Of a DNA stretch of 64,000 nt, positions 5,887 through 18,543 are shown piece by piece. Each line of letters starts with the position of its first letter. Position 1 is the stretch's first letter. The position numbers and the translations under genes are program-made. Below the pieces are notes generated by a model that saw only the letters and a program-made list of their open reading frames with translations, was not told the origin of the DNA and did not search any database. Source of the stretch: a virus; the IMG/VR virus record IMGVR_UViG_3300026484_000053, positions 64,001 to 128,000 of that record. One strand, written 5' to 3'.

Positions 5887-6402
5887 ATGAAACAACTAAG
5901 AATTTTAAAATCATCTGAAATACCGATTATAAGAGAAGAGCTACTAAAAGAGCAGCATATGAAATGTAAGATATGTAATAAAGATTGGTCTGCAGATGCT
6001 GGATTTAGTCTAGATCATCAGCACGGTAACAAATCTGAAAAATTTGGAGAAGACGGATACGCATTAGTAAGAGGAATACTTTGCAGAGCATGTAATGTGG
6101 AAGAAGGTAAAATATGGAATTCTATGAAAAGATTTGGATTTGGTACGTCAGTTGACTCCAGGATTGAATGGTTAGAGTCATTAATATGTTATTATAAGTC
6201 AGACAAACCAAAGATAAGTGGCGAATTACTTATACACCCAAATGAAGTTCCTAAAGAACCTATAATAGGTAAAAGAGAATTTAATAAGCTTAATAAATAT
6301 TTTAAAATAAAGTATCCTAATAGAAAAGAGCTGCAATACCCAAAAAGTAAGAAGTGGAATAATATACTTAAAGAACTAAAAATAGAAATGGAGCAAAAAT
6401 GA
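5887..6402 (+). CDS. gp49: Recombination endonuclease VII (Holliday junction resolvase)
   Basis: CKIC...LDHQH...VRGILCRACN.EEG motif of the Endo VII family. Confidence 0.85.
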   Translation: MKQLRILKSSEIPIIREELLKEQHMKCKICNKDWSADAGFSLDHQHGNKSEKFGEDGYALVRGILCRACNVEEGKIWNSMKRFGFGTSVDSRIEWLESLICYYKSDKPKISGELLIHPNEVPKEPIIGKREFNKLNKYFKIKYPNRKELQYPKSKKWNNILKELKIEMEQK

Positions 6403-7910
6403 TAGAAAAAGAACAAACATTATGGGAGTCTTTAAAGGCTAGATTTATGAAAGATCCTGAACTACCAGATTACGAATCAGAACCAGAAGAGGACGATATT
6501 GATATAGTTTTAAATTCTATAGTTCCTACAGGATTTAAAGATGACGGTCTTCATGGTCAAGGATTTGGTTTAGAATCTAAGAAAGAATTAGCTGTAAGGA
6601 AACAAGCCCAAGTAATTAGAGCTTATAGGAATCTTCTTAATATAGCAGAAGTAAATGACGCTTTAAAGGAAATAGTTAATGAAGCCGTTTTTAATCCTCA
6701 AGGTAAAGATCATATTAAAATAGATTTTGACAGCGAAATTATAGATAGTCTTAAAGATATTATACAAGACGAACTTGATAATATAGATGCTATGATGAAT
6801 CTTAAGAAAAACATGTACAGCGTATTTAAAAAATATTACGTAGACGGACAGCTTAATTTCCACTTATCGTACGCTAAAGGTGCTAAAGGTGCAAAAGGTG
6901 CGAGTGGAATTAAAGATATTAAAATAATTAGTCCTATTAATTTTATTTACAACAAGACTAAAAAACAATTTGAATATGTTAAAGAGTCTGATGGGAGTAC
7001 AGTTGAAAATACAGCTGGGTTTGATATAGAAGAAATAGTTAGAATAGATAGTGGCGAATACTCTAACGACATTATACTTGGAAATTTACATCCTGCTATT
7101 AAACCTGCAAGTATGCTTACTACACTTGAAAATATGCTTGTTCCTACTAGATATAACAGAAGTAAATCTAGAAGATTATTTAACGTAGACGTGGGTGGAC
7201 TTAATCCTGCTAAAGCGCAAGAAGCAATGAATAAGATAGAAAGAGAGTTTAAAACAAGTAAGTATTACGACGTTAAGAAAGGAACTATTAGTACTGAAAC
7301 TAATATGAGTTCTTTAACTGAAGATTATTGGTTACCTAATAGAGATGGTGGAAAAGGTACTACTGTTGAAATGATGGATGAGTCTTTTAGTGAAGACAAC
7401 CTTAATGACTTACAGTACGTTAAAAGAAAACTATATCTTAGTATGAATGTACCTATAGGTAGATTAGCTGGTATAGATTCTGCTGGTGAAGCAGAATTTA
7501 GTACAAGCGATGATACTATATCTAGAGAAGAACTTGCTTTCTTCAGCCATATTAGCAGATCAAGAATACAATTCCTAGACGGTTTTTACGAAATAATTAA
7601 GAGACAACTTATTAGTAAAGGAAAATGCACTGAAGAAGAATGGGTTAAGATAAGAAAGCAGTTCACGCTTAAATTCACTAATGAAAATACTTTCTTTGAA
7701 AAGATGGAAAGAGACAAATTAAGTGAGAATTTAGGTATTATAGACGACTTAGATGAAAAACTTGGTAAATTCTTTAGTTATGAAATGGTATTTAAAGACG
7801 TTCTGAAAATGGATGAAGAACAAATAAAAGAATTATCTGAACAAATTGCTAAAGAGAAAAAGGATCCTTTATATGCAGCGTTTTATAACTCATCTGAAGA
7901 AGAATGGTAG
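6399..7910 (+). CDS. gp20: Portal protein gp20
   Basis: EVNDALKEIVNEA, YYVDG, RRLFNVDVGGL...KAQE, EDYWLPNRDGGKGTTVE, LYLSMNVPIGRL, ISREELAF motifs. Confidence 0.96.
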   Translation: MIEKEQTLWESLKARFMKDPELPDYESEPEEDDIDIVLNSIVPTGFKDDGLHGQGFGLESKKELAVRKQAQVIRAYRNLLNIAEVNDALKEIVNEAVFNPQGKDHIKIDFDSEIIDSLKDIIQDELDNIDAMMNLKKNMYSVFKKYYVDGQLNFHLSYAKGAKGAKGASGIKDIKIISPINFIYNKTKKQFEYVKESDGSTVENTAGFDIEEIVRIDSGEYSNDIILGNLHPAIKPASMLTTLENMLVPTRYNRSKSRRLFNVDVGGLNPAKAQEAMNKIEREFKTSKYYDVKKGTISTETNMSSLTEDYWLPNRDGGKGTTVEMMDESFSEDNLNDLQYVKRKLYLSMNVPIGRLAGIDSAGEAEFSTSDDTISREELAFFSHISRSRIQFLDGFYEIIKRQLISKGKCTEEEWVKIRKQFTLKFTNENTFFEKMERDKLSENLGIIDDLDEKLGKFFSYEMVFKDVLKMDEEQIKELSEQIAKEKKDPLYAAFYNSSEEEW

Positions 7911-7916
7911 AAAATT

Positions 7917-8639
7917 ATGAACTTCAATCAAGGTAACACTAATAATAACGAGTATATGTTATTTAGATCCCAAACTGAGGAGCTAATAAACTTATATGGT
8001 GTACCAGTTACGTATATAAACGTAGTTAAGGAGAATCAAGATAAAGTATTTGGAGAGCATTCTCATATCAAAACTACTGACACTCACGAGTTATATATGC
8101 TTCCTGAAGATCCGCAAGGTTGGGAAGGCGACGGTGGACTTTTTAGTTCATTCGGATTAGAAAACTTAGATAGCGTCACGTTGTTTGTTTCAAGAAATGA
8201 TATGGAGAAAATCCATCCAGCTTTGACTGATAACGAATCGGGTGAATTACAGGTTAATGATATACCTAATGGTAGCTTATGCGTGTTTGAAAGTGACAGA
8301 ATTATGGAAGTGACTTCTTTCAAACTGCATGCAGAAGGTGCGAATAACATATATACTTCTAAATTAGGTAAAAACGTTTATAAACTTGTTATGACTACTT
8401 ATATGCCAAATGGAGATAACGTGTCTTCAGTTGATGATGTACAGGAGGACTATGAAAGTTTTGGAGATCTTGATAAAATATTCGGTAAAATAGCTGAAGA
8501 CAAAGTTGAGCAAGAGCATATTGCAGAAGAGAGAATTATGGAAGATGAAGTGGTTTATCCTGCTCCTGTTAGGAAAAAACCAATAAGAGCTAAAGTAAAT
8601 GAAATAAGTACATTAGGTGTATTTGGAGATTTAGACTAG
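7917..8639 (+). CDS. gp14: Neck protein gp14
   Basis: EELINLYGVPVTYI...FGE and GWEGDGGLFSSFGL..LDSVTLFVSR match the gp14 family. Confidence 0.85.
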   Translation: MNFNQGNTNNNEYMLFRSQTEELINLYGVPVTYINVVKENQDKVFGEHSHIKTTDTHELYMLPEDPQGWEGDGGLFSSFGLENLDSVTLFVSRNDMEKIHPALTDNESGELQVNDIPNGSLCVFESDRIMEVTSFKLHAEGANNIYTSKLGKNVYKLVMTTYMPNGDNVSSVDDVQEDYESFGDLDKIFGKIAEDKVEQEHIAEERIMEDEVVYPAPVRKKPIRAKVNEISTLGVFGDLD

Positions 8640-8652
8640 TTTAGACATATAA

Positions 8653-8661
8653 TGTTATAAT
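8653..8661 (+). promoter_or_regulatory. Extended -10 sigma70-type promoter (TGTTATAAT)
   Basis: TGnTATAAT upstream of ORF 8885. Confidence 0.5.
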
Positions 8662-8742
8662 AGCATAGATTTAAAATATAACCTTACGCTTCTACGCTTC
8701 TACGCGCTATATTTTAGTCACATTTTGGCCGCTTTTAGTTAG

Positions 8743-8750
8743 TATAAATA
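8743..8750 (+). promoter_or_regulatory. T4-type late promoter
   Basis: TATAAATA upstream of the structured element and ORF 8885. Confidence 0.6.
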
Positions 8751-8790
8751 ACATTATAACTGACGTACTTTAAAGTATTAACAAACATTA

Positions 8791-8868
8791 TGATTAGAGA
8801 TTTTAATTATTGGTAGCTCTCGCAGGTCCTACCAATAATTAAAGTGACCTGCGGTCACTCTCTTATCA
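8791..8868 (+). other. Multi-stem structured element (RNA leader or DNA cruciform)
   Basis: 15-bp perfect inverted repeat 8802-8816/8829-8843; 6-bp hairpin gtgacc-tgc-ggtcac 8844-8858; closing stem 8791-8800/8859-8868 (9/10 bp); loop 8821-8828 complementary to 8846-8853. Confidence 0.75.
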
Positions 8869-8884
8869 ATTAATAGGAGATAAA

Positions 8885-10861
8885 ATGAAAGCAAAATTAC
8901 AAGCTCAGTCAAATCTAAATTTTGACAATATAAGCTCATTATTATTATCTTCTATAAAAACTAACAAATTCAATCAAGCTAACAAATTCAAACAATCTAA
9001 ATATAAATCTAAATTAAAGAAAAAGAAGCATATTAATGCTATATACCCTAGTTTAAGCGTTCTTAAAATGCATAAAGAATACATATCAAGCCTAGATAAC
9101 GCACCGCAATCTAGAAGTATAGATATACTTATTGACGTTATAATCGATTTTACTAAAATGCACAGAACTAATCATATGCTAAGTAAGACTAACGGTCATC
9201 TGCTTTTAAGTTCTGAATTCATGAAAAAGTCAATTAGGCATTTCAACACCAGAAGCAACCTTACAGGTACTTTAAGAATAATCACTGGTTTTTATAACAG
9301 AACAAGAAAAGGTAACAATAAAGACAGACTTGGTGCAAGTACTTATACTAAAATAGAGCAAGAAGACACTACTTATGGGTGTGATAAAAATGTACATGAA
9401 GCAGTTAAAGAATATCTACTAAGTACTGATCCTAAAGCAGATGACCATTACGAGCAAATATCTAAACCTAAGGAAAAATCTAATAAAGACAGTAAGAATT
9501 TCCTTAAGGCAATATCAACTCCTGTAAAAGCCCTTAAGCAATGCGAACAATGCGAACAATCTAACCATTATGAGCAAGGTAGTAAAACGACGCAATCTAT
9601 AAAGCAATACAGATTTGACTATAAAGATATACAAGATGAGCTAAATGTTAATAGCTTAGCTAACAGACTAAAAGAAAAAGAACGATTAAATGAGTATATG
9701 AAAGAACAAGTACGTAACGACACGTATAAGCATGCATACCAAAAATACATTTATAAGAAAAATATTGCTGAAAATAACGAGATAATACGTTATTGTAAAG
9801 ACTTCTTTGCTAAACTAACTCTTAAAGGTAATATTCGAAGCACTCAGTATTATACAATAGACATAAAAGAAAGTACAAGTATGAGAAATGGTAGAGTATA
9901 TTCTTACTTTACGTCTTTACCATCTAAAGTAAGAGACTTTATATTTAATGGAATATCACTTGACGGTAAAAACATGGCATTCGCTACGTTATATAACAAG
10001 TACGCTAAAGAAGGACTTGATCTACCATATATGAAAGACTATGTACAGAACAGAGAAAAGCACATCAGACTATTATGCGACTTTGCATATATTGAAGCAA
10101 ACGTCCTAAACGGCTATGAAATGATAGAAGATACAGATTGTAGCGGCTATACTAAGCTTATAATATATGATTACGCTGGAGAAGTAAAAAAGCATAGAAT
10201 GACAAATCTGTATAAAAAAATGAAGAAAGAAGCTAAAATGTTATACTTAAGTGCTCTATTCGGATCTAATCTTAATGAACACTTCACTGACGACAGTACA
10301 TTAAAAATGTTAAGAAGAACGGCTACAGGTGTAAATTATGATAATCCTGCGCATCATTTTATTAAAAACCTTAAATCTGATCTTCTTAAGTGCTGCGCCT
10401 TTAGTAATGTAAAAGTTAAAGATCTGGCTAATGAATTTATGAAGATAGAGACAAGTATGATGAATGAAATACAAAATACGCTTAAGTCAGACATTAAAAA
10501 TACTATAAGAATACATGATGAAGTTATTATACCTTTTATACCTAGTAAAGGTAAAGATACTATAAGAATAAGTTCTATTAATAAAATAGAACAGATATCT
10601 GATCTATATAACGTAAAGATATCTAATGTAGATGATTTATACGATTATGCTTATTATCATAATAGTTGCACTACTTGTAGTACTTGTAGTACCCAATCAA
10701 CACCAGCAGAGATTAGTATAATCGAAAATAATAAAGTACATAGTATCATTAGTAATACAAAGCTATATGATAATGCTACGTATAAGAACTTTAGTTTCTT
10801 TGTTAGAGCTAATAAGCTAAATTACAAAGATAAAGTACCAATTTCGAGCTGCAATAGTTAA
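8885..10861 (+). CDS. Family-A polymerase / T7-type single-subunit RNA polymerase-like palm protein
   Basis: NGRVY, SLDGKN, KxxxKxxxxxxxFG and RIHDEV occur in the order of T7 RNAP/PolA motifs, with the canonical internal spacing of motif B; AGGAGA RBS. Confidence 0.6.
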   Translation: MKAKLQAQSNLNFDNISSLLLSSIKTNKFNQANKFKQSKYKSKLKKKKHINAIYPSLSVLKMHKEYISSLDNAPQSRSIDILIDVIIDFTKMHRTNHMLSKTNGHLLLSSEFMKKSIRHFNTRSNLTGTLRIITGFYNRTRKGNNKDRLGASTYTKIEQEDTTYGCDKNVHEAVKEYLLSTDPKADDHYEQISKPKEKSNKDSKNFLKAISTPVKALKQCEQCEQSNHYEQGSKTTQSIKQYRFDYKDIQDELNVNSLANRLKEKERLNEYMKEQVRNDTYKHAYQKYIYKKNIAENNEIIRYCKDFFAKLTLKGNIRSTQYYTIDIKESTSMRNGRVYSYFTSLPSKVRDFIFNGISLDGKNMAFATLYNKYAKEGLDLPYMKDYVQNREKHIRLLCDFAYIEANVLNGYEMIEDTDCSGYTKLIIYDYAGEVKKHRMTNLYKKMKKEAKMLYLSALFGSNLNEHFTDDSTLKMLRRTATGVNYDNPAHHFIKNLKSDLLKCCAFSNVKVKDLANEFMKIETSMMNEIQNTLKSDIKNTIRIHDEVIIPFIPSKGKDTIRISSINKIEQISDLYNVKISNVDDLYDYAYYHNSCTTCSTCSTQSTPAEISIIENNKVHSIISNTKLYDNATYKNFSFFVRANKLNYKDKVPISSCNS

Positions 10862-10917
10862 ATCCTGCCTATAGTGGCGTCTGCTTTACGTCAAGTCCTT
10901 TAACGTGACTTCAACTA

Positions 10918-10983
10918 CTTCAACTACTTTAATACAACTTTAATCTATCTTATGTTATAATATACTTATAAAAATTATAAAGG
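10918..10983 (+). repeat. 66-bp direct repeat copy 1, containing an early promoter and RBS
   Basis: Identical to 11737-11803 except for one A; contains TTTAAT tracts, TGTTATAAT (10953-10961) and AAGG. Confidence 0.9.
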
Positions 10984-10990
10984 ATAATGA

Positions 10991-11410
10991 ATGAAATTTA
11001 AAACAATAAAATCGCCTACAACAGGCAAAATATGGATGGACAGAAACATCGGTGCCAAGAGAAGAGCCAAAGCAATTGACGATAAAAAGTCATATGGTAA
11101 GATATTAACTTGGGACGAAGCAGTAGATGTATGTAAAAAATACCCAGGCTTTAGATTACCTACGATAAAAGAGCTTAAATCCGAGAATATACAAAACAGT
11201 AATGACGCATTTAATAAACTTAAACTACCTTCTGCTGGTGACGGTTTTGCGTACAGTCAAGGTTCTTGGGGTACTCTGTGGTCGAGTTCTATCGAAAGCA
11301 AGCGCTCTTTCGCATTGGGCTTCCATTCAAAGTCTACGAGCAAGTACAAATACAATCGCGAATTTGAATTTTCAGTAAGATTAATAATGAAAAGAAGGCC
11401 AAATAAATGA
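10991..11410 (+). CDS. Small C-type-lectin-fold protein (FISUMP/DUF1566-like), candidate DGR target
   Basis: GKIWMDRNIGA, TWDEA..C...FRLPT.KEL, LWSSS, R.FEFSVRL are typical of CLec domains used as DGR targets. Confidence 0.8.
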   Translation: MKFKTIKSPTTGKIWMDRNIGAKRRAKAIDDKKSYGKILTWDEAVDVCKKYPGFRLPTIKELKSENIQNSNDAFNKLKLPSAGDGFAYSQGSWGTLWSSSIESKRSFALGFHSKSTSKYKYNREFEFSVRLIMKRRPNK

Positions 11411-11580
11411 AAGCAAGTAACGAAGAAATGAGAGACCAATAAGCAAGAGTCAGCTGTGACGGTTGTCCATTTTTCGATGCTATAGATAGATGCACTATAA
11501 TAAATTATAACGAAGAGATTTTCGCAGATACTGAACATAAATGTGGAGCTTACGCATGTATTGCAAATGAAGGTAATTAG
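11407..11580 (+). pseudogene. Small Cys-rich phage ORF interrupted by an in-frame TAA
   Basis: ATG overlaps the previous stop (ATGA); reads MKASNEEMRDQ*ARVSCDGCPFF...HKCGAYAC..* with TAA at 11440-11442. Confidence 0.4.
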
Positions 11581-11598
11581 GAACTTCATAAACCTGAG

Positions 11599-11751
11599 AT
11601 GGAGAAGCATAATTGCAAATTCCAAGTTGGTGATACAATCAGATTCAAGGGATTTTCAGGTAAATACAAGATCATCGACATTGATCACGAAAAAAGAAAA
11701 TACATCCCGGAAATTCAGACACATCATTTAATGCGACTTCAACTACTTTAA
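11599..11751 (+). CDS. Small hypothetical ORF (KFQVGDTIR motif), 3' end lies in the promoter repeat
   Basis: Hand-translated MEKHNCKFQVGDTIRFKGFSGKYKIIDIDHEKRKY...; this KFxVGDxVR-type start is common in small phage proteins. Confidence 0.4.
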   Translation: MEKHNCKFQVGDTIRFKGFSGKYKIIDIDHEKRKYIPEIQTHHLMRLQLL

Positions 11752-11803
11752 TACAACTTTAATCTATCTTATGTTATAATATACTTATAAAAAATTATAA
11801 AGG
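11737..11803 (+). repeat. 67-bp direct repeat copy 2, containing an early promoter and RBS
   Basis: Matches 10918-10983; TATAAT at 11775-11780. Confidence 0.9.
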
Positions 11804-11809
11804 TTTATT

Positions 11810-12010
11810 ATGAAACTTCAAACTTCTATTAATGGTACGTTAAAAGAGTATCTTCATCTTTTAATAGGTAAAAAATTCAAGAGTGCTTCAGGTAACATTT
11901 ACGAAATTAATGTTCTACCTTTCGCTTTTTATGCTATATCTTTTAATGATAACGTATTATTTACGTCTAACAGAGCAGATGTTATAAATGATTGGCTGTA
12001 CAGAAACTAA
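11810..12010 (+). CDS. Hypothetical protein (66 aa)
   Basis: Follows the promoter repeat; TAATG-coupled to the helicase. Confidence 0.55.
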   Translation: MKLQTSINGTLKEYLHLLIGKKFKSASGNIYEINVLPFAFYAISFNDNVLFTSNRADVINDWLYRN

Positions 12011-14700
12011 TGTATTTAACAATTTTTAACGCTATTAAAAGCACTAACAAAGCAAATAAAAAGCCTATATCTCAATATGATGACGAGTCATTTATTTTTT
12101 ATAATGTTTATTGCGCATCCTTAAGACAGTGTTTTAAGGTTCTATCTAACGAATACATCCTTAGCCAAACCATAAATATTGACGAACCTTTAAAACTGAC
12201 TAGAAGTGTAAAGGTTTTAAAAGAATTTAAAAGTGACAATTTAGAAATACTACCATTAGATTTAGATTACATTTATACGCAAGAGATGTGTTTAAAAGTT
12301 ATACAGTTTTTTAAAGATATGAACTTTAAATGTATATTAGGTAAAAGTAGAGGATTTAATAACAAAGATAAATTTACTCTTAAAGGATTTATCGTACTAG
12401 ACATTAAAAATGACAGAGCAGTAATATCAGGATTGCTAAATTACATCCAAACTTTAATGAATGAATATGGATTAGAAGGAGTTGAGTTAGACTGTGCTAT
12501 TAAAACAATAAATTCAGTGCAAAGCCCAGTCTTAAATAATGATGTTTTATATATTAATGAGTCAAGTAAAGCAAGAGTATTAAATAACACAGACTTTAAT
12601 ATTATAGAAGTGCAGTCTTATAACGATACGGTAGTTGATTTATCTAGCTTAAATACTAAAGAATCAGCATTAGACACTTGTTTAGAAATATTTGCACAAA
12701 AAGGATTTACAGCCGTATCGCAAAGAGAAGATACTAGCATTAATTTTAGTCATCCAAGTGAGAAGAAGTCTAAAGGTGGTTTCTTCTTCTTTAAAGAATC
12801 ACCAACTATAATGCACCATCCTAATAGTGCAAGGACTATTAATATAGCTCAAGAATTTAAACGTACCGCTATTGGTAAAGCATATTTTATTGAACGTGGA
12901 AAACTTATACAGAAGAATATGTTAGAAAAACCTGATTATGGTATATTCGTAAATGAAAGATACCTTAACGTAGAGCCTAAAATTAAAGAAATACAGGATT
13001 TTGTTCATAAAGATACAGAAGTTTTAAAGATAAAATCAGCTATGGGTACAGCTAAAACGAATATCATATCAGCAGTTATTAAAGAAGCTCAAATTAAAAA
13101 AGAAAAGTTAAGAGTTATTTTAGTGTCTAATAGAGTAAGTGTAGCAAGAGATTTTGCTGATAAGTATGAAGAATATAATATGTCATATTATAAAGAAGTC
13201 CAAAACAGTAAAACAGAGCCTTTTAATCTTATAGTACAGTTTGATAGCCTTTATAAATTTAAAGTGCATGAATATGATATTGTCATTTTTGACGAGTTTA
13301 TAAGTCTTTTATTGCATCATCAAAGTCCGTTAGGTACGAATGGTAATTTAAACGCTGCAAAATTCAGAGTTTTATTAAATAAGAAAATTCTATGTTGCGA
13401 TGCTTTTCTTACTGGATACGAAGACGTTTTCTTTAAAGACAGAAAAATAGTACAGTTTGCTAACAAATATCGTGACGATGTTAAACTTATAGAGTATAAA
13501 GATAAAGGTAGATTTTGTAAAGATATAATAAACAATTCACTTTCACTTAAAGAAGGCGAACATATTAGCGCATCTTTTACTTCTTTAAATATGCTGAAAG
13601 TTGTACAACAGGAGTTACTTTCAAAAGATATAAGGGTAATCAGTCTTACAGGAGAGACACCAGATACTACTAGAGAATTAATTTATAAAAGATTTAAAGA
13701 AGACAGCCACAACGCATTTCAGGTTATACTTTATACTCCTACACTTACAGTAGGAGTAAGTAATGTTAATAACGTATTACAGCACTACCATTATGACTCT
13801 AGTATGAGTTGTGACGTTATTAGTTCATTACAAATGATTAAAAGATCTAGAACAGCTAAAGAGATACGATTTTATTTAGAAGATAAAAAGGCAATTAACG
13901 AAACGTCGGCTGCTAAACTAAATGAGATAGCTAAAAACAATATTGTAGAGTTCTACAATAACAGTGATAAAACTCTTCTAGTAAAATTAAATGAAGATAC
14001 AGGAGAGGTTGAACTTACTAAATTAGCTTACTATCTTAACAATATTAATGCTTTTAGTAATCTATTAAGCAACGATCATGCTAATGCTTTTAAAGTTCTG
14101 CTGAAATACCAATTTAATGGCGGCTACGATTCTGCTGAAATTAATGAAGAAATTTATGAATTCGACTATAAATCAAAAATAAAAGAGATTAAAACTAAAG
14201 AAAAAGAAAACGCTGCTAATTTATTGGAAGAATATTCTTATTTTAATTATACTGAGCAAGATGTTAACGACGCTAAGTTTAGTACTATAGAACTTAAAGA
14301 CGAAGAAAAAGTTATGCTGATGAAAGATAATATCCAAAAGCTATTTAAGCACCAAATACCAAAACATATTTTAAATGAACTTGTTAAGATAGATCAAAAA
14401 GATAATATAGTTAGAAAGATTAAAAACTACCATTTGTTTAGTGGCGACAAAGATTATTTAATGTATAAGCTTAGTTTTACAGTAAGTAATAATCTTCATG
14501 TTAGTAAGCGATTCGTTAAAAATATTAAGATAGCTTGTGAAGTGAAAGAGTTAAAAGACGCTTACTCTAACAACGATATAAAACGTATAGAAAGTAACAT
14601 ACAAGGTTTTGGAGAATTTATAAAAGAAATAGGTTATGTTAAACAAAGAAACAAGTACAGATTAGATAAAAGAATACTAACATATCTAAAGTATCTATAG
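12010..14700 (+). CDS. UL9/origin-binding-protein-like SF2 helicase with putative N-terminal primase (AEP)-like domain, paralogue 1
   Basis: KSAMGTAKT, VSNRVSVA, FDEFISLL, CDAFLT, YTPTLTVGVS and LQMIKRSRT align in order with UL9-type motifs. The N-terminus has LPLDLD...GKSRG...KGFI. ATG at 12010 is preferred over the TTG at 11992. Confidence 0.8.
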   Translation: MYLTIFNAIKSTNKANKKPISQYDDESFIFYNVYCASLRQCFKVLSNEYILSQTINIDEPLKLTRSVKVLKEFKSDNLEILPLDLDYIYTQEMCLKVIQFFKDMNFKCILGKSRGFNNKDKFTLKGFIVLDIKNDRAVISGLLNYIQTLMNEYGLEGVELDCAIKTINSVQSPVLNNDVLYINESSKARVLNNTDFNIIEVQSYNDTVVDLSSLNTKESALDTCLEIFAQKGFTAVSQREDTSINFSHPSEKKSKGGFFFFKESPTIMHHPNSARTINIAQEFKRTAIGKAYFIERGKLIQKNMLEKPDYGIFVNERYLNVEPKIKEIQDFVHKDTEVLKIKSAMGTAKTNIISAVIKEAQIKKEKLRVILVSNRVSVARDFADKYEEYNMSYYKEVQNSKTEPFNLIVQFDSLYKFKVHEYDIVIFDEFISLLLHHQSPLGTNGNLNAAKFRVLLNKKILCCDAFLTGYEDVFFKDRKIVQFANKYRDDVKLIEYKDKGRFCKDIINNSLSLKEGEHISASFTSLNMLKVVQQELLSKDIRVISLTGETPDTTRELIYKRFKEDSHNAFQVILYTPTLTVGVSNVNNVLQHYHYDSSMSCDVISSLQMIKRSRTAKEIRFYLEDKKAINETSAAKLNEIAKNNIVEFYNNSDKTLLVKLNEDTGEVELTKLAYYLNNINAFSNLLSNDHANAFKVLLKYQFNGGYDSAEINEEIYEFDYKSKIKEIKTKEKENAANLLEEYSYFNYTEQDVNDAKFSTIELKDEEKVMLMKDNIQKLFKHQIPKHILNELVKIDQKDNIVRKIKNYHLFSGDKDYLMYKLSFTVSNNLHVSKRFVKNIKIACEVKELKDAYSNNDIKRIESNIQGFGEFIKEIGYVKQRNKYRLDKRILTYLKYL

Positions 14701-14781
14701 GGTCTATATCGTCTCTTATCTTCGTTTAAGCTTTTATTATAAATATTTTTATAACATCACATAACACTATAAAGGCATATA

Positions 14782-17403
14782 ATGCATGAACATAAAACTA
14801 AAATAACTTTATTTGACGGTCAAGGAGATACTAAAATTCCTTTTTCTACAAGAGAAGATGGATCTTTTATTTTTGCCACTCTAGAATTAAGTTACACTGA
14901 AATAGTAAAAGTTAAGCAAGATTCTTATTCCCTAGCTTATTCATATAATATACAAGAACCAATATTAACTCACAGAGCAAAATTATCAAACGTAGCGCCT
15001 ATAAATGATGGAGATATTGTAGATTCAATTACGTTTAATATTAAAGTCGAAGATATTAATATAGAAGACGCTATAAATGTACTTAGAAACACACAATATG
15101 ATATGATAGCACTAAAATCAAAGCAAGGATTAACTTGCATATTAAAAGTACAAATGGAACTAAAATATATTTACTACAGCATGATGGAACTTCAAAAATT
15201 ATTAGGTTCTCAATGTAGCATTAAAGTACCTAACATTTACGACATCGAGAAACCGTTTGAAAACCTTGAGGTACTTTACGAAAGAAACACTAATAAAGCT
15301 TTACATAATATAATGATAGAGAAAGAACTTGAAAACACATCTTCTATGACATTTATAGAGATATGTTTATCAGAATTTGAAAATATGGGATACGAACAAA
15401 CTAGCATAAAATCACTTAAAGGTAAACCAGGAGTGTTCTTATTTACTAAAGACCAGGATAAATTTCATTTTAACGAAGAATATCCCATTAAAATGCAAGG
15501 TATTTACGGTGCAAAATCTGAGTCAATATTTTATCTTATAAACAAAACAAAGCAAGGTAAAGAGTGGCTTCAAAACAGAAATAAAAAAGAACAGATAAAC
15601 GCTTTAGAAAATAAAAAATCTAAGAAAAGCAAAAATAATATCATAATAAACGAGAGATATCTTAAGGCTGAAGATTTAAAAGCAGTTACAAATAAATTCA
15701 TTCAAACTAAGGACTGCGTTTTAAAGATAAAATCAGCTATGGGTACAGCAAAAAGTGACGTTATTTATGATATTATAAAGCAAGCACATGAAGATGGCAT
15801 GAAGATTATAGTTGTTTCAAACAGAATATCAGTAGCGAAAGATTTTGCAGAAAAGTACAATATGGATATCTATCAAAATATGTACAACAGTTCTAATTCG
15901 ATAGTAGTACAGTTTGATAGTTTACACCGTTATAATCCAGCTGATTATGACTTAGTAGTATTTGATGAGTTTATGAGCTTATTGCTGCACCATAGAACTT
16001 CTTTAGGTACAAACAGTAACATTAACGCTATTAAATTTAAAATCCTACTCCAAAAAAGAGTAATACTTGCTGATGCCTTTCTTACTGGATACGAAGACGA
16101 GTTTATAAAAGATCGTAAAATTATACAGATAGAAAATACTTATAGAGATTGTACTGATCTTTTTAACTACTCTAATAAAGAGCACTTTATACAAACTTTA
16201 ATAGACGAGTCTCAAAAGTTAAAAGATGAAGAGCATATAAGTGCGTCGTTTACTTCATTAGCAGCATTAAAATTGGTATACTACTCTCTTAAAAAGAAAG
16301 GTGTAAAGGTAGTTAAACTAACAAGTGAAACGTCTGAAGATACAAGGCAGTTAATTTATAAAAGATTTAAGGAGCAAACGCATATTGCATTTCAGGTTAT
16401 ACTTTATACTCCTACACTTACAGTAGGAGTAAGTAATGTTAATAACGTCACTAAACATTTTCATTATGACTCTAGTATGAGTTGCGACGTTATTAGTTCA
16501 TTACAGATGATTAAAAGATCTAGAACAGCTAAAGAGATACATTTCTTTTTGCAGAATAGACAACTTCATAAAGACATCGATCTTGAAAGTATAAACAGAA
16601 GAGCTGAGCATAATGCTGTAAAATACTACGCTAATAAAGATAAAGCATTACTTTTAGATGTAGATTATGAAACAGGTGAGATGAAGCTTACACCTTTAGC
16701 GCATTATATTAACAAGATAGAAGTGTTTAACAATATCCTTATGAACAATCACAAGAATGCATTTTTAGTACTTCTATCTTACCAGTTTAATTCAGCACCT
16801 ATAGAAGTTAAAGGTAAAGTATCTTGGAAAATGAGAGATCTTACTAGACAAATAAAAGAAAAAGAATTACAAGACGCTTTAAGTGTTTTCGATAAATTTA
16901 AAGACGTTAAATTAAGTGATAAAGAAGTTAAAAGACTAAGATTTAAAACGTCAGAGTTATCAGATGAAGAAAAAGTAGCACAAATAAAACATGATATTCA
17001 ATCTATGTATAGCAAAGAAATTCCTCAAAAATCGCTAGACGAATTAACGCGTTTAGAAATAGAACAGAACTTTAAGTTTACTGATAAAGTTAAATTAAAT
17101 AAGATATTTCAAAACGAAGACGACAGTTATGCAAAATACGAATTATCTGAAGCTATAAGTAATAATATAGGAATGTTGCAAGATAATAATAAAGAGACAA
17201 TAAACTTTTTAAAATATCTTATTATTAACGATAACGCAGCATTAAAAGGATCTTATACTTTAGATGACATAAAAAGAATTGATTTCGAAAGAGGTAAAGG
17301 TTCTAAACTTGCTAATTTCTTAAAAAGCTTAGGATATACGTACAGCGCTGGTAAATGGGAAGTAGACCTAAGAGTTCTTGGTTATATTAAGTACCTTGAT
17401 TAA
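14782..17403 (+). CDS. UL9/origin-binding-protein-like SF2 helicase, paralogue 2
   Basis: Same motif series (KSAMGTAKS, FDEFMSLL, ADAFLT, YTPTLTVGVS, LQMIKRSRT); the N-terminus lacks an obvious DxD. Confidence 0.8.
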   Translation: MHEHKTKITLFDGQGDTKIPFSTREDGSFIFATLELSYTEIVKVKQDSYSLAYSYNIQEPILTHRAKLSNVAPINDGDIVDSITFNIKVEDINIEDAINVLRNTQYDMIALKSKQGLTCILKVQMELKYIYYSMMELQKLLGSQCSIKVPNIYDIEKPFENLEVLYERNTNKALHNIMIEKELENTSSMTFIEICLSEFENMGYEQTSIKSLKGKPGVFLFTKDQDKFHFNEEYPIKMQGIYGAKSESIFYLINKTKQGKEWLQNRNKKEQINALENKKSKKSKNNIIINERYLKAEDLKAVTNKFIQTKDCVLKIKSAMGTAKSDVIYDIIKQAHEDGMKIIVVSNRISVAKDFAEKYNMDIYQNMYNSSNSIVVQFDSLHRYNPADYDLVVFDEFMSLLLHHRTSLGTNSNINAIKFKILLQKRVILADAFLTGYEDEFIKDRKIIQIENTYRDCTDLFNYSNKEHFIQTLIDESQKLKDEEHISASFTSLAALKLVYYSLKKKGVKVVKLTSETSEDTRQLIYKRFKEQTHIAFQVILYTPTLTVGVSNVNNVTKHFHYDSSMSCDVISSLQMIKRSRTAKEIHFFLQNRQLHKDIDLESINRRAEHNAVKYYANKDKALLLDVDYETGEMKLTPLAHYINKIEVFNNILMNNHKNAFLVLLSYQFNSAPIEVKGKVSWKMRDLTRQIKEKELQDALSVFDKFKDVKLSDKEVKRLRFKTSELSDEEKVAQIKHDIQSMYSKEIPQKSLDELTRLEIEQNFKFTDKVKLNKIFQNEDDSYAKYELSEAISNNIGMLQDNNKETINFLKYLIINDNAALKGSYTLDDIKRIDFERGKGSKLANFLKSLGYTYSAGKWEVDLRVLGYIKYLD

Positions 17404-17415
17404 GTACCTTGATTA
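17387..17415. repeat. 13-bp tandem duplication at the helicase stop
   Basis: ttaagtaccttga x2. Confidence 0.85.
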
Positions 17416-17421
17416 TAAATA
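17414..17421 (+). promoter_or_regulatory. T4-type late promoter
   Basis: TATAAATA 22 nt before the gp3 ATG. Confidence 0.75.
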
Positions 17422-17443
17422 ATTATAAAATAGGAAAGTAAAA

Positions 17444-17911
17444 ATGAGAAACTTAAGAAACTTCAGTACTACTAGTAACTACCAATTTGGTACGTCTTTA
17501 TTCGGTACAGAGACAACATACGCTATACAATCTGTTAACTTACCAGGTATATCATTTACTCATCCTGAAGTTTCTTCTGGTTCAGTACTTGGCCATATAC
17601 AAGGCGATACAGCACAGTACAATGAACTTGAGTTAAATTTTATTATAGACGAAAACCTGGAAGTATGGAAAGAGATTATTAATGGAATGATTAAGATGAG
17701 AAATACAGAAGGTCTTGGTCAGCAAGTGAATTGCAATTCATTTCTTAAAATATTAGATTCTAATAATAAGGAAATTCTTCACTTAGACTTCACAAACACA
17801 TTAATAAGCGTTATTAGCGACGTAGAATATTCTAGTACAGAAGAAGATGAAATAATAACTCTTCCTGTTACTATAACTTATGACTACTACAATATCAAGA
17901 ACACTAAGTAA
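17444..17911 (+). CDS. gp3: Tail completion/tube terminator protein gp3
   Basis: AIQSVNLPGISF, GDTAQYNELELNFIIDENLEVWKEI, F.YDYY gp3/gp19-family pattern. Confidence 0.8.
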   Translation: MRNLRNFSTTSNYQFGTSLFGTETTYAIQSVNLPGISFTHPEVSSGSVLGHIQGDTAQYNELELNFIIDENLEVWKEIINGMIKMRNTEGLGQQVNCNSFLKILDSNNKEILHLDFTNTLISVISDVEYSSTEEDEIITLPVTITYDYYNIKNTK

Positions 17912-17916
17912 CTTTA

Positions 17917-18543
17917 ATGCTTAGAAGACAACTACCACTACAACCAGACGGTTCAGTAAATAGATTCGACCTGCCAGAAGATTATACTGGTGGTGACGTT
18001 ACGATATTTGTTAATGGACAATTATTAGCTACAAGAGATATAGAAGATCACGTATACGGATTTGAAGTTAAACTAGATGACGAAGATAATGTTTATTTCC
18101 TAGAATTCTACACTGTACTTGAAGATGAAGAGCATCTATACGTTCTTTATGATGGTGAAGGTGACGGAAATTTCGCTGGAGAAGGTACAATCAGTGTTGA
18201 AGCAAATGTATGGCAACTTATAGCTCTTCCATTAGAAAACCAAGTATGGCTTGATGGTAAGATGCAGAAAAGTGATGAGCAAAGTACTATTAAGAATTGC
18301 GTCGTAGATCAACTAGAAGATGTATACGATAGACCAGCTGAAGAATTATTTAAAGTGGCTAATTGTGCTATAGGTGATGAGGGTGGACAATTAAGAAATT
18401 ATATACCTGGATTTACTAAAGATACTTCTGTACATAATTTCCCATTAGTATATATTGACGATAACGGTGATACAACTAGTAAGGAAATAGTAGGTTTTTG
18501 GATTAGATCCTTAGAAGAGTTTATTATAACTTGGAAAGTGTAA
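17917..18543 (+). CDS. Probable virion structural protein
   Basis: Acidic, beta-rich (DGSVNRFDLP...VTIFVNGQL); co-transcribed with gp3. Confidence 0.45.
   Translation: MLRRQLPLQPDGSVNRFDLPEDYTGGDVTIFVNGQLLATRDIEDHVYGFEVKLDDEDNVYFLEFYTVLEDEEHLYVLYDGEGDGNFAGEGTISVEANVWQLIALPLENQVWLDGKMQKSDEQSTIKNCVVDQLEDVYDRPAEELFKVANCAIGDEGGQLRNYIPGFTKDTSVHNFPLVYIDDNGDTTSKEIVGFWIRSLEEFIITWKV

Follow-up and report, generated by a model that had tools for sequence, protein, structure and literature searches.

A candidate TV-Pol-like polymerase gene with a nuclease-type leader lies beside duplicated UL9-like helicase genes in a distant T4-like phage

Results

Layout of the locus

We analysed a 64,000-nt window of viral DNA, bases 64001-128000 of a 193.7-kb contig rated complete (IMG/VR record IMGVR_UViG_3300026484_000053), and focused on the block at 8640-17403, where an open reading frame (ORF) with a structured leader, ORF658, lies upstream of two UL9-like helicase genes, helA and helB. 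Positions are those of the window unless the genome or another contig is named. The gene order is endonuclease VII, portal, neck-family gene, 245-nt spacer, ORF658, lectin-like gene, 66-aa ORF, helA, helB and tail-tube-family gene, and every sizeable ORF from 5887 to 18543 lies on the plus strand. A first-pass annotation of this DNA had placed a one-strand block between gp14 and gp3. The unbroken plus-strand run between a neck-family and a tail-tube-family gene bears this out, with the downstream gene assigned to the tail-tube family and only putatively gp3. As argued below, we favour with moderate confidence a composite locus, in which a probably mobile, tightly regulated TV-Pol-like accessory polymerase sits beside clade-core UL9-like helicases, over one origin machine. 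The genes that carry this argument, and their flanks, are:

7917-8639, plus strand: neck protein of the gp13/gp14 family, 240 aa (Pfam T4_neck-protein E 2e-9; phrog_679), upstream flank
8885-10861, plus strand: ORF658 (P0001), N-terminal helical region and predicted minimal family-A (TV-Pol-like) polymerase domain at ~232-588 (AF2, Foldseek, VIA, motifs)
12010-14700, plus strand: helA, UL9-like superfamily 2 (SF2) helicase, 896 aa from the ATG or 902 aa from the TTG at 11992 (phrog_10417 E 1e-92; gene-caller product P0009)
14782-17403, plus strand: helB, helA paralogue (42% identity to helA)
17444-17911, plus strand: tail-tube-family protein (phrog_45 E 1e-24), downstream flank

ORF658 is predicted to adopt a family-A polymerase fold

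We modelled ORF658 with AlphaFold2 (AF2) from an eight-sequence family alignment, which gave a predicted local distance difference test score (pLDDT) of 70-90 for the core over ~300-590; the model from the single ORF658 sequence was unusable (pLDDT 34). The top 50 Foldseek matches in the PDB were all family A / Pol I-type enzymes, with E of 0.01-0.1 and a probability of 0.9-0.99 for most. VIA, a Foldseek-independent search of 48,161 chains, likewise returned chains of the PolA/ssRNAP (single-subunit RNA polymerase) superfamily in all of the first ten places, aligned to ~232-588 of ORF658. Pol theta came out on top (Z 12.4, root-mean-square deviation 5.8, 284 residues aligned) with Klenow at Z 11.2, and the further matches comprised Aquifex Pol I (Z 9.7), apPol (9.3), Pol nu (8.8), T7 DNA polymerase (DNAP; 7.7) and mitochondrial RNA polymerase (RNAP; 7.6), with T7 RNAP at rank 13 (Z 6.5). 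The TxxGR, A, B and C motifs follow one another in that order and an exonuclease domain is absent. Fold and motifs together thus uphold the palm polymerase proposed in the first-pass annotation. The motifs compare as follows:

TxxGR motif: NGRVY in the ORF658 family; DWRGRVY in T7 RNAP; TGR in T7 DNAP
Motif A: SLDxxNAA (D360xxxxA365) in the ORF658 family; DGSCSG in T7 RNAP; DASGLE in T7 DNAP
Motif B: KxxxLxxxFG in the ORF658 family; K631..M635..Y639G640 in T7 RNAP; K522..Y526..Y530G531 in T7 DNAP
Motif C: IHDE in the ORF658 family; IHDS in T7 RNAP; VHDE in T7 DNAP

The motif-B spacing, K+4/+8/+9, is the same as in both T7 enzymes. Invariant in the eight-sequence alignment are R337, R350, D360, A365, K451, L455, M519, E522, T523, H544 and D545, and R337, D360, K451, L455 and H544-D545 remain so in nine sequences, when a paralogue in the same genome, ORF683, is included. 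The motif-B glycine, G460, is kept in eight of these nine, being lost in ORF683, and is preceded by F in six of nine. At the steric-gate position (E480 of T7 DNAP) the family carries an invariant Ala. Loss of the steric gate, exemplified by Klenow E710A, is the established polymerase enzymology behind predictions of ribonucleotide tolerance, and because of the invariant Ala we predict by analogy that ORF658 could use ribonucleotides. We infer that the protein is catalytically active.

At the level of sequence the family stands apart. None of its eight members matched Pfam, even at E 10, and PHROGs and PDB sequence/profile searches with ORF658 yielded noise only. Aligned with hhalign, the family gave E 0.39 against T7 RNAP and E 0.49 against T7 DNAP, the latter alignment covering motif C alone. 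Since these profile comparisons are not significant, a claim of sequence family fails, while the claim of fold holds.

Structural matches among viral proteins point to the TV-Pols. In BFVD the best match (E 4e-6) was the 'DNA replication protein' of the Zamilon virophage, and other virophage-type and uncultured-phage proteins were also found, among them a Qinghai Lake virophage helicase/primase/polymerase (E 1.9e-3); an algal giant virus protein matching at E 6.5e-4 is named origin-binding-protein-domain protein. The structure rows from the ESM Atlas were D5_N/DUF5906 proteins of Preplasmiviricota. TV-Pol is a minimal family-A core that occurs in mobile elements and viruses, either stand-alone or fused to a helicase or a helical N-domain (PMC2579912; PMC3671162), and is defined by a thumb of two helices, a conserved Arg on a beta-hairpin, a pair of Asp, RxxxK fingers and the lack of a nuclease (PMC2579912). 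In ORF658 we find antiparallel helices at 255-275 and 281-309 and a strand at 322-332, followed by R337, D360 and D545, and most family members have [KR]xxxK451, as the TV-Pol fingers require. The hhalign comparison of the family with Ma-LMM01 gp030, itself only presumed to be a TV-Pol (it lies beside transposases), was not significant (E 0.13).

The family is rare. An exhaustive phmmer search of 1.84 billion representative proteins found only seven relatives (P0002-P0008), and about ten family members are known in all. A word-indexed homologue search with ORF658 or the family alignment returned only the query itself, low-complexity words saturating the candidate list, and when 50,697 phage records were searched by megablast and tblastn with ORF658 and with the block, no match appeared. 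The paralogue ORF683 (683 aa) lies outside the window at genome 187145-189196 (element plus gene 187056-189196; L030:1057-3197) and matches the family hidden Markov model (HMM) at E 2.6e-18. It is 16% identical to ORF658 and keeps R337, R350, D360, A365, K451, H544 and D545 (ORF658 numbering), having lost the motif-B FG. ORF757, in L031 (L012, L013, L016-L018, L021, L022 and L031-L033 denote related contigs), is a further member (E 1e-15). The genomic neighbours of the family genes vary from locus to locus. With two diverged copies in this genome, a patchy distribution and varying neighbours, the ORF658 gene therefore behaves as an accessory gene and is probably mobile.

A structured leader precedes ORF658

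The 245-nt spacer between the neck gene and ORF658 contains the following elements:

8640-8684, plus strand: early-type promoter segment with extended -10 box TGTTATAAT at 8653-8661 (promoter scan)
8685-8708, plus strand: tandem 8-mer TACGCTTC, two exact copies and one degenerate copy
8743-8750, plus strand: box TATAAATA resembling a T4 late promoter, 59 nt upstream of S1; it forms the outer box of the leader cassette
8802-8843, plus strand: helix S1, a 15-bp perfect AT-rich hairpin (8802-8816/8829-8843) with a 12-nt loop beginning CTCT
8821-8853, plus strand: helix S2, GC-rich loop 8-mer at 8821-8828 complementary to 8846-8853, 2 nt past S1 (flank-shuffle p = 0.0002)
8859-8881, plus strand: small hairpin of CTCTCTTA with TAGGAGAT, sequestering the ORF658 Shine-Dalgarno (SD) sequence (minimum-free-energy fold)

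S1 and S2 are interleaved and topologically exclusive. The RNA fold of 8790-8890 reaches -32.2 kcal/mol (z -5.3, with none of 200 shuffles as good) and leaves the SD paired; a 6-bp stem with a 3-nt loop lies at 8844-8858. The structured element of the first-pass annotation, a 15-bp hairpin with loop-flank complementarity, is thereby confirmed. A scan of 8400-12100 with Rfam found nothing above noise.

The ~45-nt promoter segment recurs almost identically upstream of ORF683, and the same tATGTTATAAT box also precedes P0002, P0006 and P0007. The TACGCTTC array is absent from the otherwise similar ORF683 leader. Elsewhere in the genome such a tandem array occurs once, with 3.5 copies on the minus strand (L004, 18240-18272). 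These arrays may be protein-binding sites.

The leader recurs as a portable cassette before homing endonuclease genes

Ten leaders of unrelated sequence have this same architecture, seven before ORF658-family genes, including those found by folding the upstream regions of relatives in L012, L016, L017 and L022, and three before free-standing homing endonuclease genes. When the whole genome was scanned for perfect hairpins with a loop complementary to the 3' flank, exactly two came up, both on the sense strand, one before ORF658 and the other before ORF683. The latter (genome 187056-187118), with no helicase gene closer than 110 kb, combines a hairpin of 19 bp with 11 nt of loop-flank pairing. 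In the ORF757 leader the hairpin reaches 27 bp. The three endonuclease-linked elements stand 36-39 nt before lone homing endonuclease genes on the opposite strand:

L031:17503-17566: endonuclease-linked element
L031:19254-19318: endonuclease-linked element
L033:12631-12692: endonuclease-linked element

The endonucleases behind them belong to phrog_655, to phrog_314 with SegE_GIY-YIG (beside a truncated ligase ORF) and to NUMOD3. At L031:18454-20091 a GIY-YIG endonuclease gene lies head-to-head with a 229-aa ORF that matches just the C-terminal part of ATP-dependent DNA ligase, and the ligase gene of this contig may have been fractured by nuclease insertion.

All ten leaders are laid out as TATAAATA box, TAAGAG-like tract, S1, the 3' strand of S2 (S2b), anti-SD/SD hairpin and start codon. 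In eight of them the distance between the TATAAATA box and the long hairpin is no more than 30 nt. S1 is a perfect stem of 15-27 bp in every case, its loop starting with CTCT or CTCC and holding the 5' strand of S2 (S2a); S2b follows S1 after 0-3 or 16-17 nt, and S2 has a flank-shuffle p of at most 0.0002 in eight leaders. We considered a compact H-type pseudoknot of S1 and S2, which geometry excludes in the six leaders where a linker of 0-3 nt follows a 15-27-bp stem. Hairpins over the ribosome-binding site (RBS), equivalent to that of ORF658, are found in the other hairpin-bearing leaders. In the three endonuclease leaders the 5' anti-SD arm contains TATAAAT, by analogy with T4 I-TevI likely an inner late promoter, where the ORF658 arm has TATCAAT.

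Homing endonuclease genes of the T4 family (I-TevI, segB, mobE) are locked by an RBS-sequestering hairpin, from which late transcripts escape (PMC2988022). Because the hairpin is shared with homing endonuclease genes, we regard it as a gene-expression leader and not as a helicase-linked origin element; by analogy with the T4 locks, it most likely keeps translation of ORF658 low or time-restricted. The earlier proposal of a hairpin-origin module combining recognition, melting and priming is not sustained, the same hairpin standing before endonuclease genes and before the distant ORF683.

helA and helB are duplicated clade-core UL9-like helicases

A four-member helicase profile searched against the PDB found UL9 structures as the sole significant matches (E 7e-10, motifs I-III). 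The Pfam model Herpes_ori_bp (PF02399; cut-off 20) matched helA at 33.9 bits and gave no match on helB. Together with the 42% identity of the two proteins, both of which fall in phrog_10417, this substantiates the two UL9-like helicases of ~900 aa in the first-pass annotation. The N-terminal ~330 aa of helA form a conserved domain carrying an hhhDhD motif, and the C-terminal domain is ~270 aa long. The C-terminal 270 aa of helA and helB had no Pfam or PDB match, the UL9 matches spanning UL9 residues ~83-224 only, and similarity to the C-terminal origin-binding domain of UL9 was not detected in helA.

All primary helicase copies have the N-terminal motifs hhhDhD, GKSRSxN and HPSExKSKGGFF; helB keeps Walker A, motif II and motif VI and has lost the DxD and HPSEKKSKGG motifs. 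Tandem pairs occur in the window (12010-17403) and at L031:7242-12721; the copy without the N-terminal hhhDhD and HPSExKSKGG motifs, which still has the helicase motifs, comes second here and first in L031 (hel1), and the tree is compatible with one duplication or two. In 12 of 15 members Walker A (helA 13042-13059) is MGTAK[ST], its Lys preceded by Ala and not by the customary Gly; the canonical GK is found in the L031 pair and a Campylobacter phage. Leads from ESM features for the helA N-domain were RepB_primase and BT4734-like_N, both at 0.90; the corresponding HMMs, PF16793 and PF08800, matched nothing in the genome, and the N-domain had no match to any Pfam family.

Helicase homologues are present in 55 Campylobacter phage records, where they lie beside UvsW, and in about 12 environmental contigs; a related-locus search with helA alone found nothing. 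In L013, L031, L032 and L033 a gp13-family neck gene, of equal size in all four, is followed by a Dda-like helicase gene and one or two UL9-like helicase genes. As this order recurs in relatives, including those without the polymerase, the neck-helicase adjacency is ancestral and not an insertion. The helicases cannot then be counted as part of a non-T4 insertion, as had been supposed. The helA-helB pair is a tandem duplication of a clade-core UL9-like SF2 helicase gene, usually found beside neck genes, and such helicases most likely act in DNA replication, recombination or repair.

The two genes have different promoters. The early-type box TGTTATAAT, present in 47 copies in the genome, mostly 30-60 nt ahead of plus-strand genes, stands at 8653, 10953 and 11772, in agreement with the early-type promoter of the first-pass annotation, but helB follows a T4 late-type box, which also stands ahead of the endonuclease VII gene and other late genes:

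14738-14748, plus strand: late-type promoter box TATAAATATTT, 44 nt before helB

Linkage of polymerase and helicase genes, and the question of an origin

Half of the ten family loci have an ORF658-family gene within 10 kb of a UL9-like helicase gene (the window, L013, L031, L021 and L016), in each case on the same strand, and in L016 the two are adjacent. The polymerase gene occurs without a nearby helicase gene in L017, L018, L022 and at ORF683 (187 kb), L012 being too short to judge; helicase genes without the polymerase are found in L032, L033 and all Campylobacter phages searched. The co-occurrence of parts, proposed earlier as a check, is thus seen in five loci, but each part also exists without the other. 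The linkage is real but facultative, and largely reflects shared synteny within one sub-clade.

Cumulative GC skew, which in T4-like phages tracks transcription, mirrors gene orientation here and shows no inflection at 72.6 kb of the genome, the position of this locus; its turning points lie near 100 and 150 kb. An origin at this locus thus finds no backing in the skew. Nor does anything point to a replacement of T4-style initiation; a T4-type replisome with family-B polymerase (PolB), gp41-like helicase and UvsW is kept.

The lectin-like gene and its flanking repeats

Between ORF658 and helA lie the following features:

10908-10975, plus strand: promoter/RBS repeat copy 1, periodic CTTTAAT tracts and TGTTATAAT
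10991-11410, plus strand: C-type-lectin-like gene (Lcl_C/DUF1566-like), 139 aa (Pfam Lcl_C E 5.8e-7, below the curated cut-off)
11738-11805, plus strand: promoter/RBS repeat copy 2, ahead of ORF66 and helA
11810-12010, plus strand: 66-aa ORF, its TAA stop overlapping the helA ATG (TAATG), with no Pfam or PHROGs family match

The two near-identical promoter/RBS repeats of ~66 bp bracket the lectin-like gene and decayed small ORFs, an arrangement that resembles a PeSL-type shuffling cassette. We also considered the lectin-like gene as the target of a diversity-generating retroelement; blastn of 10991-11450 against the whole genome at word size 7 found no template repeat, and on this ground we rejected the idea.

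Genome context

The contig has a G+C content of 32%. Its source may be a hydrothermal vent metagenome, the one DNA data set among the sequencing runs listed as containing it; RNA data sets containing it were not listed. Among its genes are those for gp23, sheath and terminase, and its portal protein is 35% identical to the portals of Campylobacter Eucampyvirinae phages. The phage is a distant T4-like phage, a vent relative of the Campylobacter T4-like phages. Its T4-type replication genes comprise family-B polymerase, DnaB-like gp41, UvsW, RNase H, ligase, topoisomerase II and a gp46-like SMC ATPase, and a Toprim gp61-like primase candidate scores just below the cut-off.

Two further observations concern genes elsewhere on the contig. 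The ribonucleotide reductase large subunit is encoded by two ORFs (L006:15057-18177, genome 55057-58177), the second starting with an intein-splicing-domain fragment, so that nrdA may be split or intein-interrupted. The gene at L005:1153-2442 (genome 21153-22442) codes for a ClpX-like ATPase that combines the ClpX zinc finger with an AAA_2 domain, and a ClpP protease gene is found in related contigs.

Discussion

A composite locus

The reading that we favour separates the locus into two parts. helA and helB would be a duplicated core helicase resident beside the neck genes. The segment upstream of them would be plastic, made up of ORF658 under a nuclease-type translational lock and of the PeSL-flanked lectin-like gene. 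ORF658 itself would be a divergent TV-Pol-like minimal family-A polymerase of thumb, palm and fingers, devoid of a proofreading domain, and a candidate primase-polymerase. In its cassette a host-type promoter would be followed by the late box, by S1 with its loop pairing to the 3' flank (S2) and by the RBS-sequestering hairpin, and this leader would hold translation of ORF658 down or confine it in time, much as in T4 I-TevI, segB and mobE. The shared leader suggests that the polymerase gene travels like a selfish gene. TV-Pols do not displace the resident replisome, and their primase and polymerase activities are predictions even for the founding members (PMC2579912).

Several points weigh against this picture. 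Behind the polymerase assignment stand the motifs and a model of medium quality (mean pLDDT 57), and ORF658 has no sequence-profile link to Pfam DNA_pol_A, the T7 polymerases or the candidate TV-Pol. A mechanism of mobility is not evident, ORF658 having no nuclease or integrase domain. Three ORF658-family members lack the hairpin, and S1 and S2 are incompatible in one compact fold in the six leaders with a 0-3-nt linker; the putative regulatory role of the leader is argued from structure and analogy. Finally, the five of ten loci with a UL9-like helicase gene within 10 kb, one of them adjacent, and the BFVD match named for an origin-binding-protein domain leave room for a partnership of polymerase and helicase.

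Such a partnership is possible because of that linkage and that match, and it would take the form of a split primase-helicase, with the TV-Pol-like enzyme and the UL9-like helicase(s) as an auxiliary priming and unwinding pair, like the fusion with a D5 helicase in Sputnik V13, serving restart, repair or extra initiation while the hairpin is just a leader. TV-Pols, as predicted primase-polymerases, are habitually linked or fused to helicases (PMC2579912, PMC3671162), the five linked loci have both genes on one strand, and the invariant steric-gate Ala fits RNA priming. We nevertheless judge a split pair unlikely: L032, L033 and the Campylobacter phages have the helicase and lack the polymerase, L017, L018, L022 and the ORF683 locus have the polymerase and no helicase nearby, the linkage is mostly the synteny of one sub-clade, and a gp41-like helicase and a gp61-like primase candidate are already encoded by the phage.

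ORF658 could also have a polymerase-like fold and be inactive, for example as a nucleic-acid-binding regulator or an anti-defence protein. Its extreme divergence, low-complexity inserts and lack of profile-level similarity would fit, as would the loss of the motif-B FG in ORF683. However, both catalytic Asp, the His before motif C, the motif-B Lys and two Arg are invariant in nine sequences that share 16-24% identity, and since such invariance is the typical pattern of retained catalysis, we consider an inactive protein improbable.

An equally long shot is that each TV-Pol-like paralogue uses the S1/S2 element before its own gene as a private priming site or template, with the UL9-like helicase opening S1 so that S2 forms. 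If true, this would be a hairpin-specified, protein-matched route of initiation or DNA synthesis not known in T4-like phages, and the same element before nuclease genes would mark sites where synthesis helps selfish genes to spread.

Very improbable is the full model of the first-pass annotation, in which UL9-like helicases recognise and melt a hairpin origin, ORF658 primes and T4 R-loop initiation is replaced. In their general activities the components would indeed suit such a role, tandem 8-mers and AT-rich DNA are present in the region, and hairpin-dependent priming has precedents in mitochondrial OriL with POLRMT and in phages G4 and M13. Yet the same hairpin architecture stands before homing endonuclease genes and before ORF683, far from a helicase gene, and always in the sense leader beside the RBS hairpin; the origin-binding domain of UL9 was not detected in helA, the GC skew has its turning points near 100 and 150 kb, away from this locus at 72.6 kb, and the T4 replisome is complete, with UvsW.

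It is hardly credible that ORF658 is a single-subunit RNAP or primase with its upstream hairpin as a private promoter in the style of the phage N4 virion RNAP, each paralogue being matched to its hairpin: the fold is common to T7 and mitochondrial RNAPs (Z 6.5-7.6), the steric-gate Glu is missing, each gene copy has its own hairpin sequence and a 6-bp/3-nt hairpin lies at 8844-8858, but endonuclease genes carry the same architecture, three family members have no hairpin, Z is higher to DNA than to RNA polymerases, the enzyme would have no regulon because each hairpin sequence is unique in the genome, and an N4-type promoter in the triloop hairpin was rejected, this hairpin not being conserved in the other leaders.

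Significance

To our knowledge no TV-Pol-type polymerase has been characterised, and those that we know of come from transposons, virophages and a few phages. The composite-locus reading would add a very divergent branch of about ten sequences, missed by Pfam and PHROGs, in T4-like phages of vent Campylobacterota-type hosts; in this branch Ala occurs naturally at the ribose steric gate, and a genome holds two copies. The ten sequence-independent leaders offer a system in which to study how costly or selfish genes are kept silent in T4-like phages. The UL9-like helicase emerges as a clade-core gene, whose conserved, uncharacterised N-terminal domain degenerates in one member of each tandem pair. 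An attractive origin-module reading is corrected as unsupported.

Comparison with known systems

With canonical Pol I-type and T7 polymerases ORF658 has in common the predicted fold of residues 232-588 and the motif order TxxGR, A, B, C. Unlike them, it is about half the size and has neither a 3'-5' nor a 5'-3' nuclease domain; the steric gate is Glu in DNA polymerases, Gly in T7 RNAP and Ala in ORF658, the motif-B Tyr is replaced by Phe, and sequence similarity is below detection.

TV-Pols, represented by the N-terminal domain of Sputnik V13 and by the Zamilon replication protein, the best viral structural match of ORF658, have the thumb helices, the Arg, the two Asp and the basic-xxx-K in common with it. 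Alike, too, are the lack of an exonuclease domain, the optional all-helical N-terminal domain and the occurrence in viruses or mobile DNA that keep their own replisome. ORF658 differs from TV-Pols in having no significant sequence-profile link or Pfam match, in being neither fused to nor beside a D5-type SF3 helicase, an integrase or a resolvase, and in its setting, a T4-like myovirus and a nuclease-type leader, with about ten members known.

helA and helB are most similar in motifs I-III to herpesvirus UL9 (PDB 9hgj, 9hgi, 9zgf and 9vjh), which is also ~850-900 aa in size. In contrast to UL9, the phage helicases have an extra N-terminal domain of ~330 aa with the hhhDhD motif before the core, and in most family members Walker A is MGTAK[ST].

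PeSLs are repeated intergenic cassettes of T4-type phages, ~50-100 bp long, with an AT-rich tract, a sigma-70-type early promoter, a stem-loop and an SD (PMC2839356, PMC4122927). They flank orphan genes in plastic regions, a pattern that the 66-bp repeats bracketing the lectin-like gene and the 45-nt promoter of ORF658 and ORF683 fit, although the stem-loops here are not of the GGGG...CCCC terminator type.

In the endonuclease locks of the T4 family (I-TevI, I-TevII, I-TevIII, segB and Aeh1 mobE; PMC2988022), a selfish or accessory gene lying downstream of other transcription has its RBS sequestered in a stable RNA hairpin, as in the leaders here, and TATAAATA late-promoter boxes are likewise part of the cassette here. 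In contrast to those locks, the leaders described here have an extra long perfect hairpin (15-27 bp) with loop-3' flank pairing, an interleaved pair not described for T4, the ORF658 copy lacks an intact inner late box, and the gene that this cassette guards is polymerase-like.

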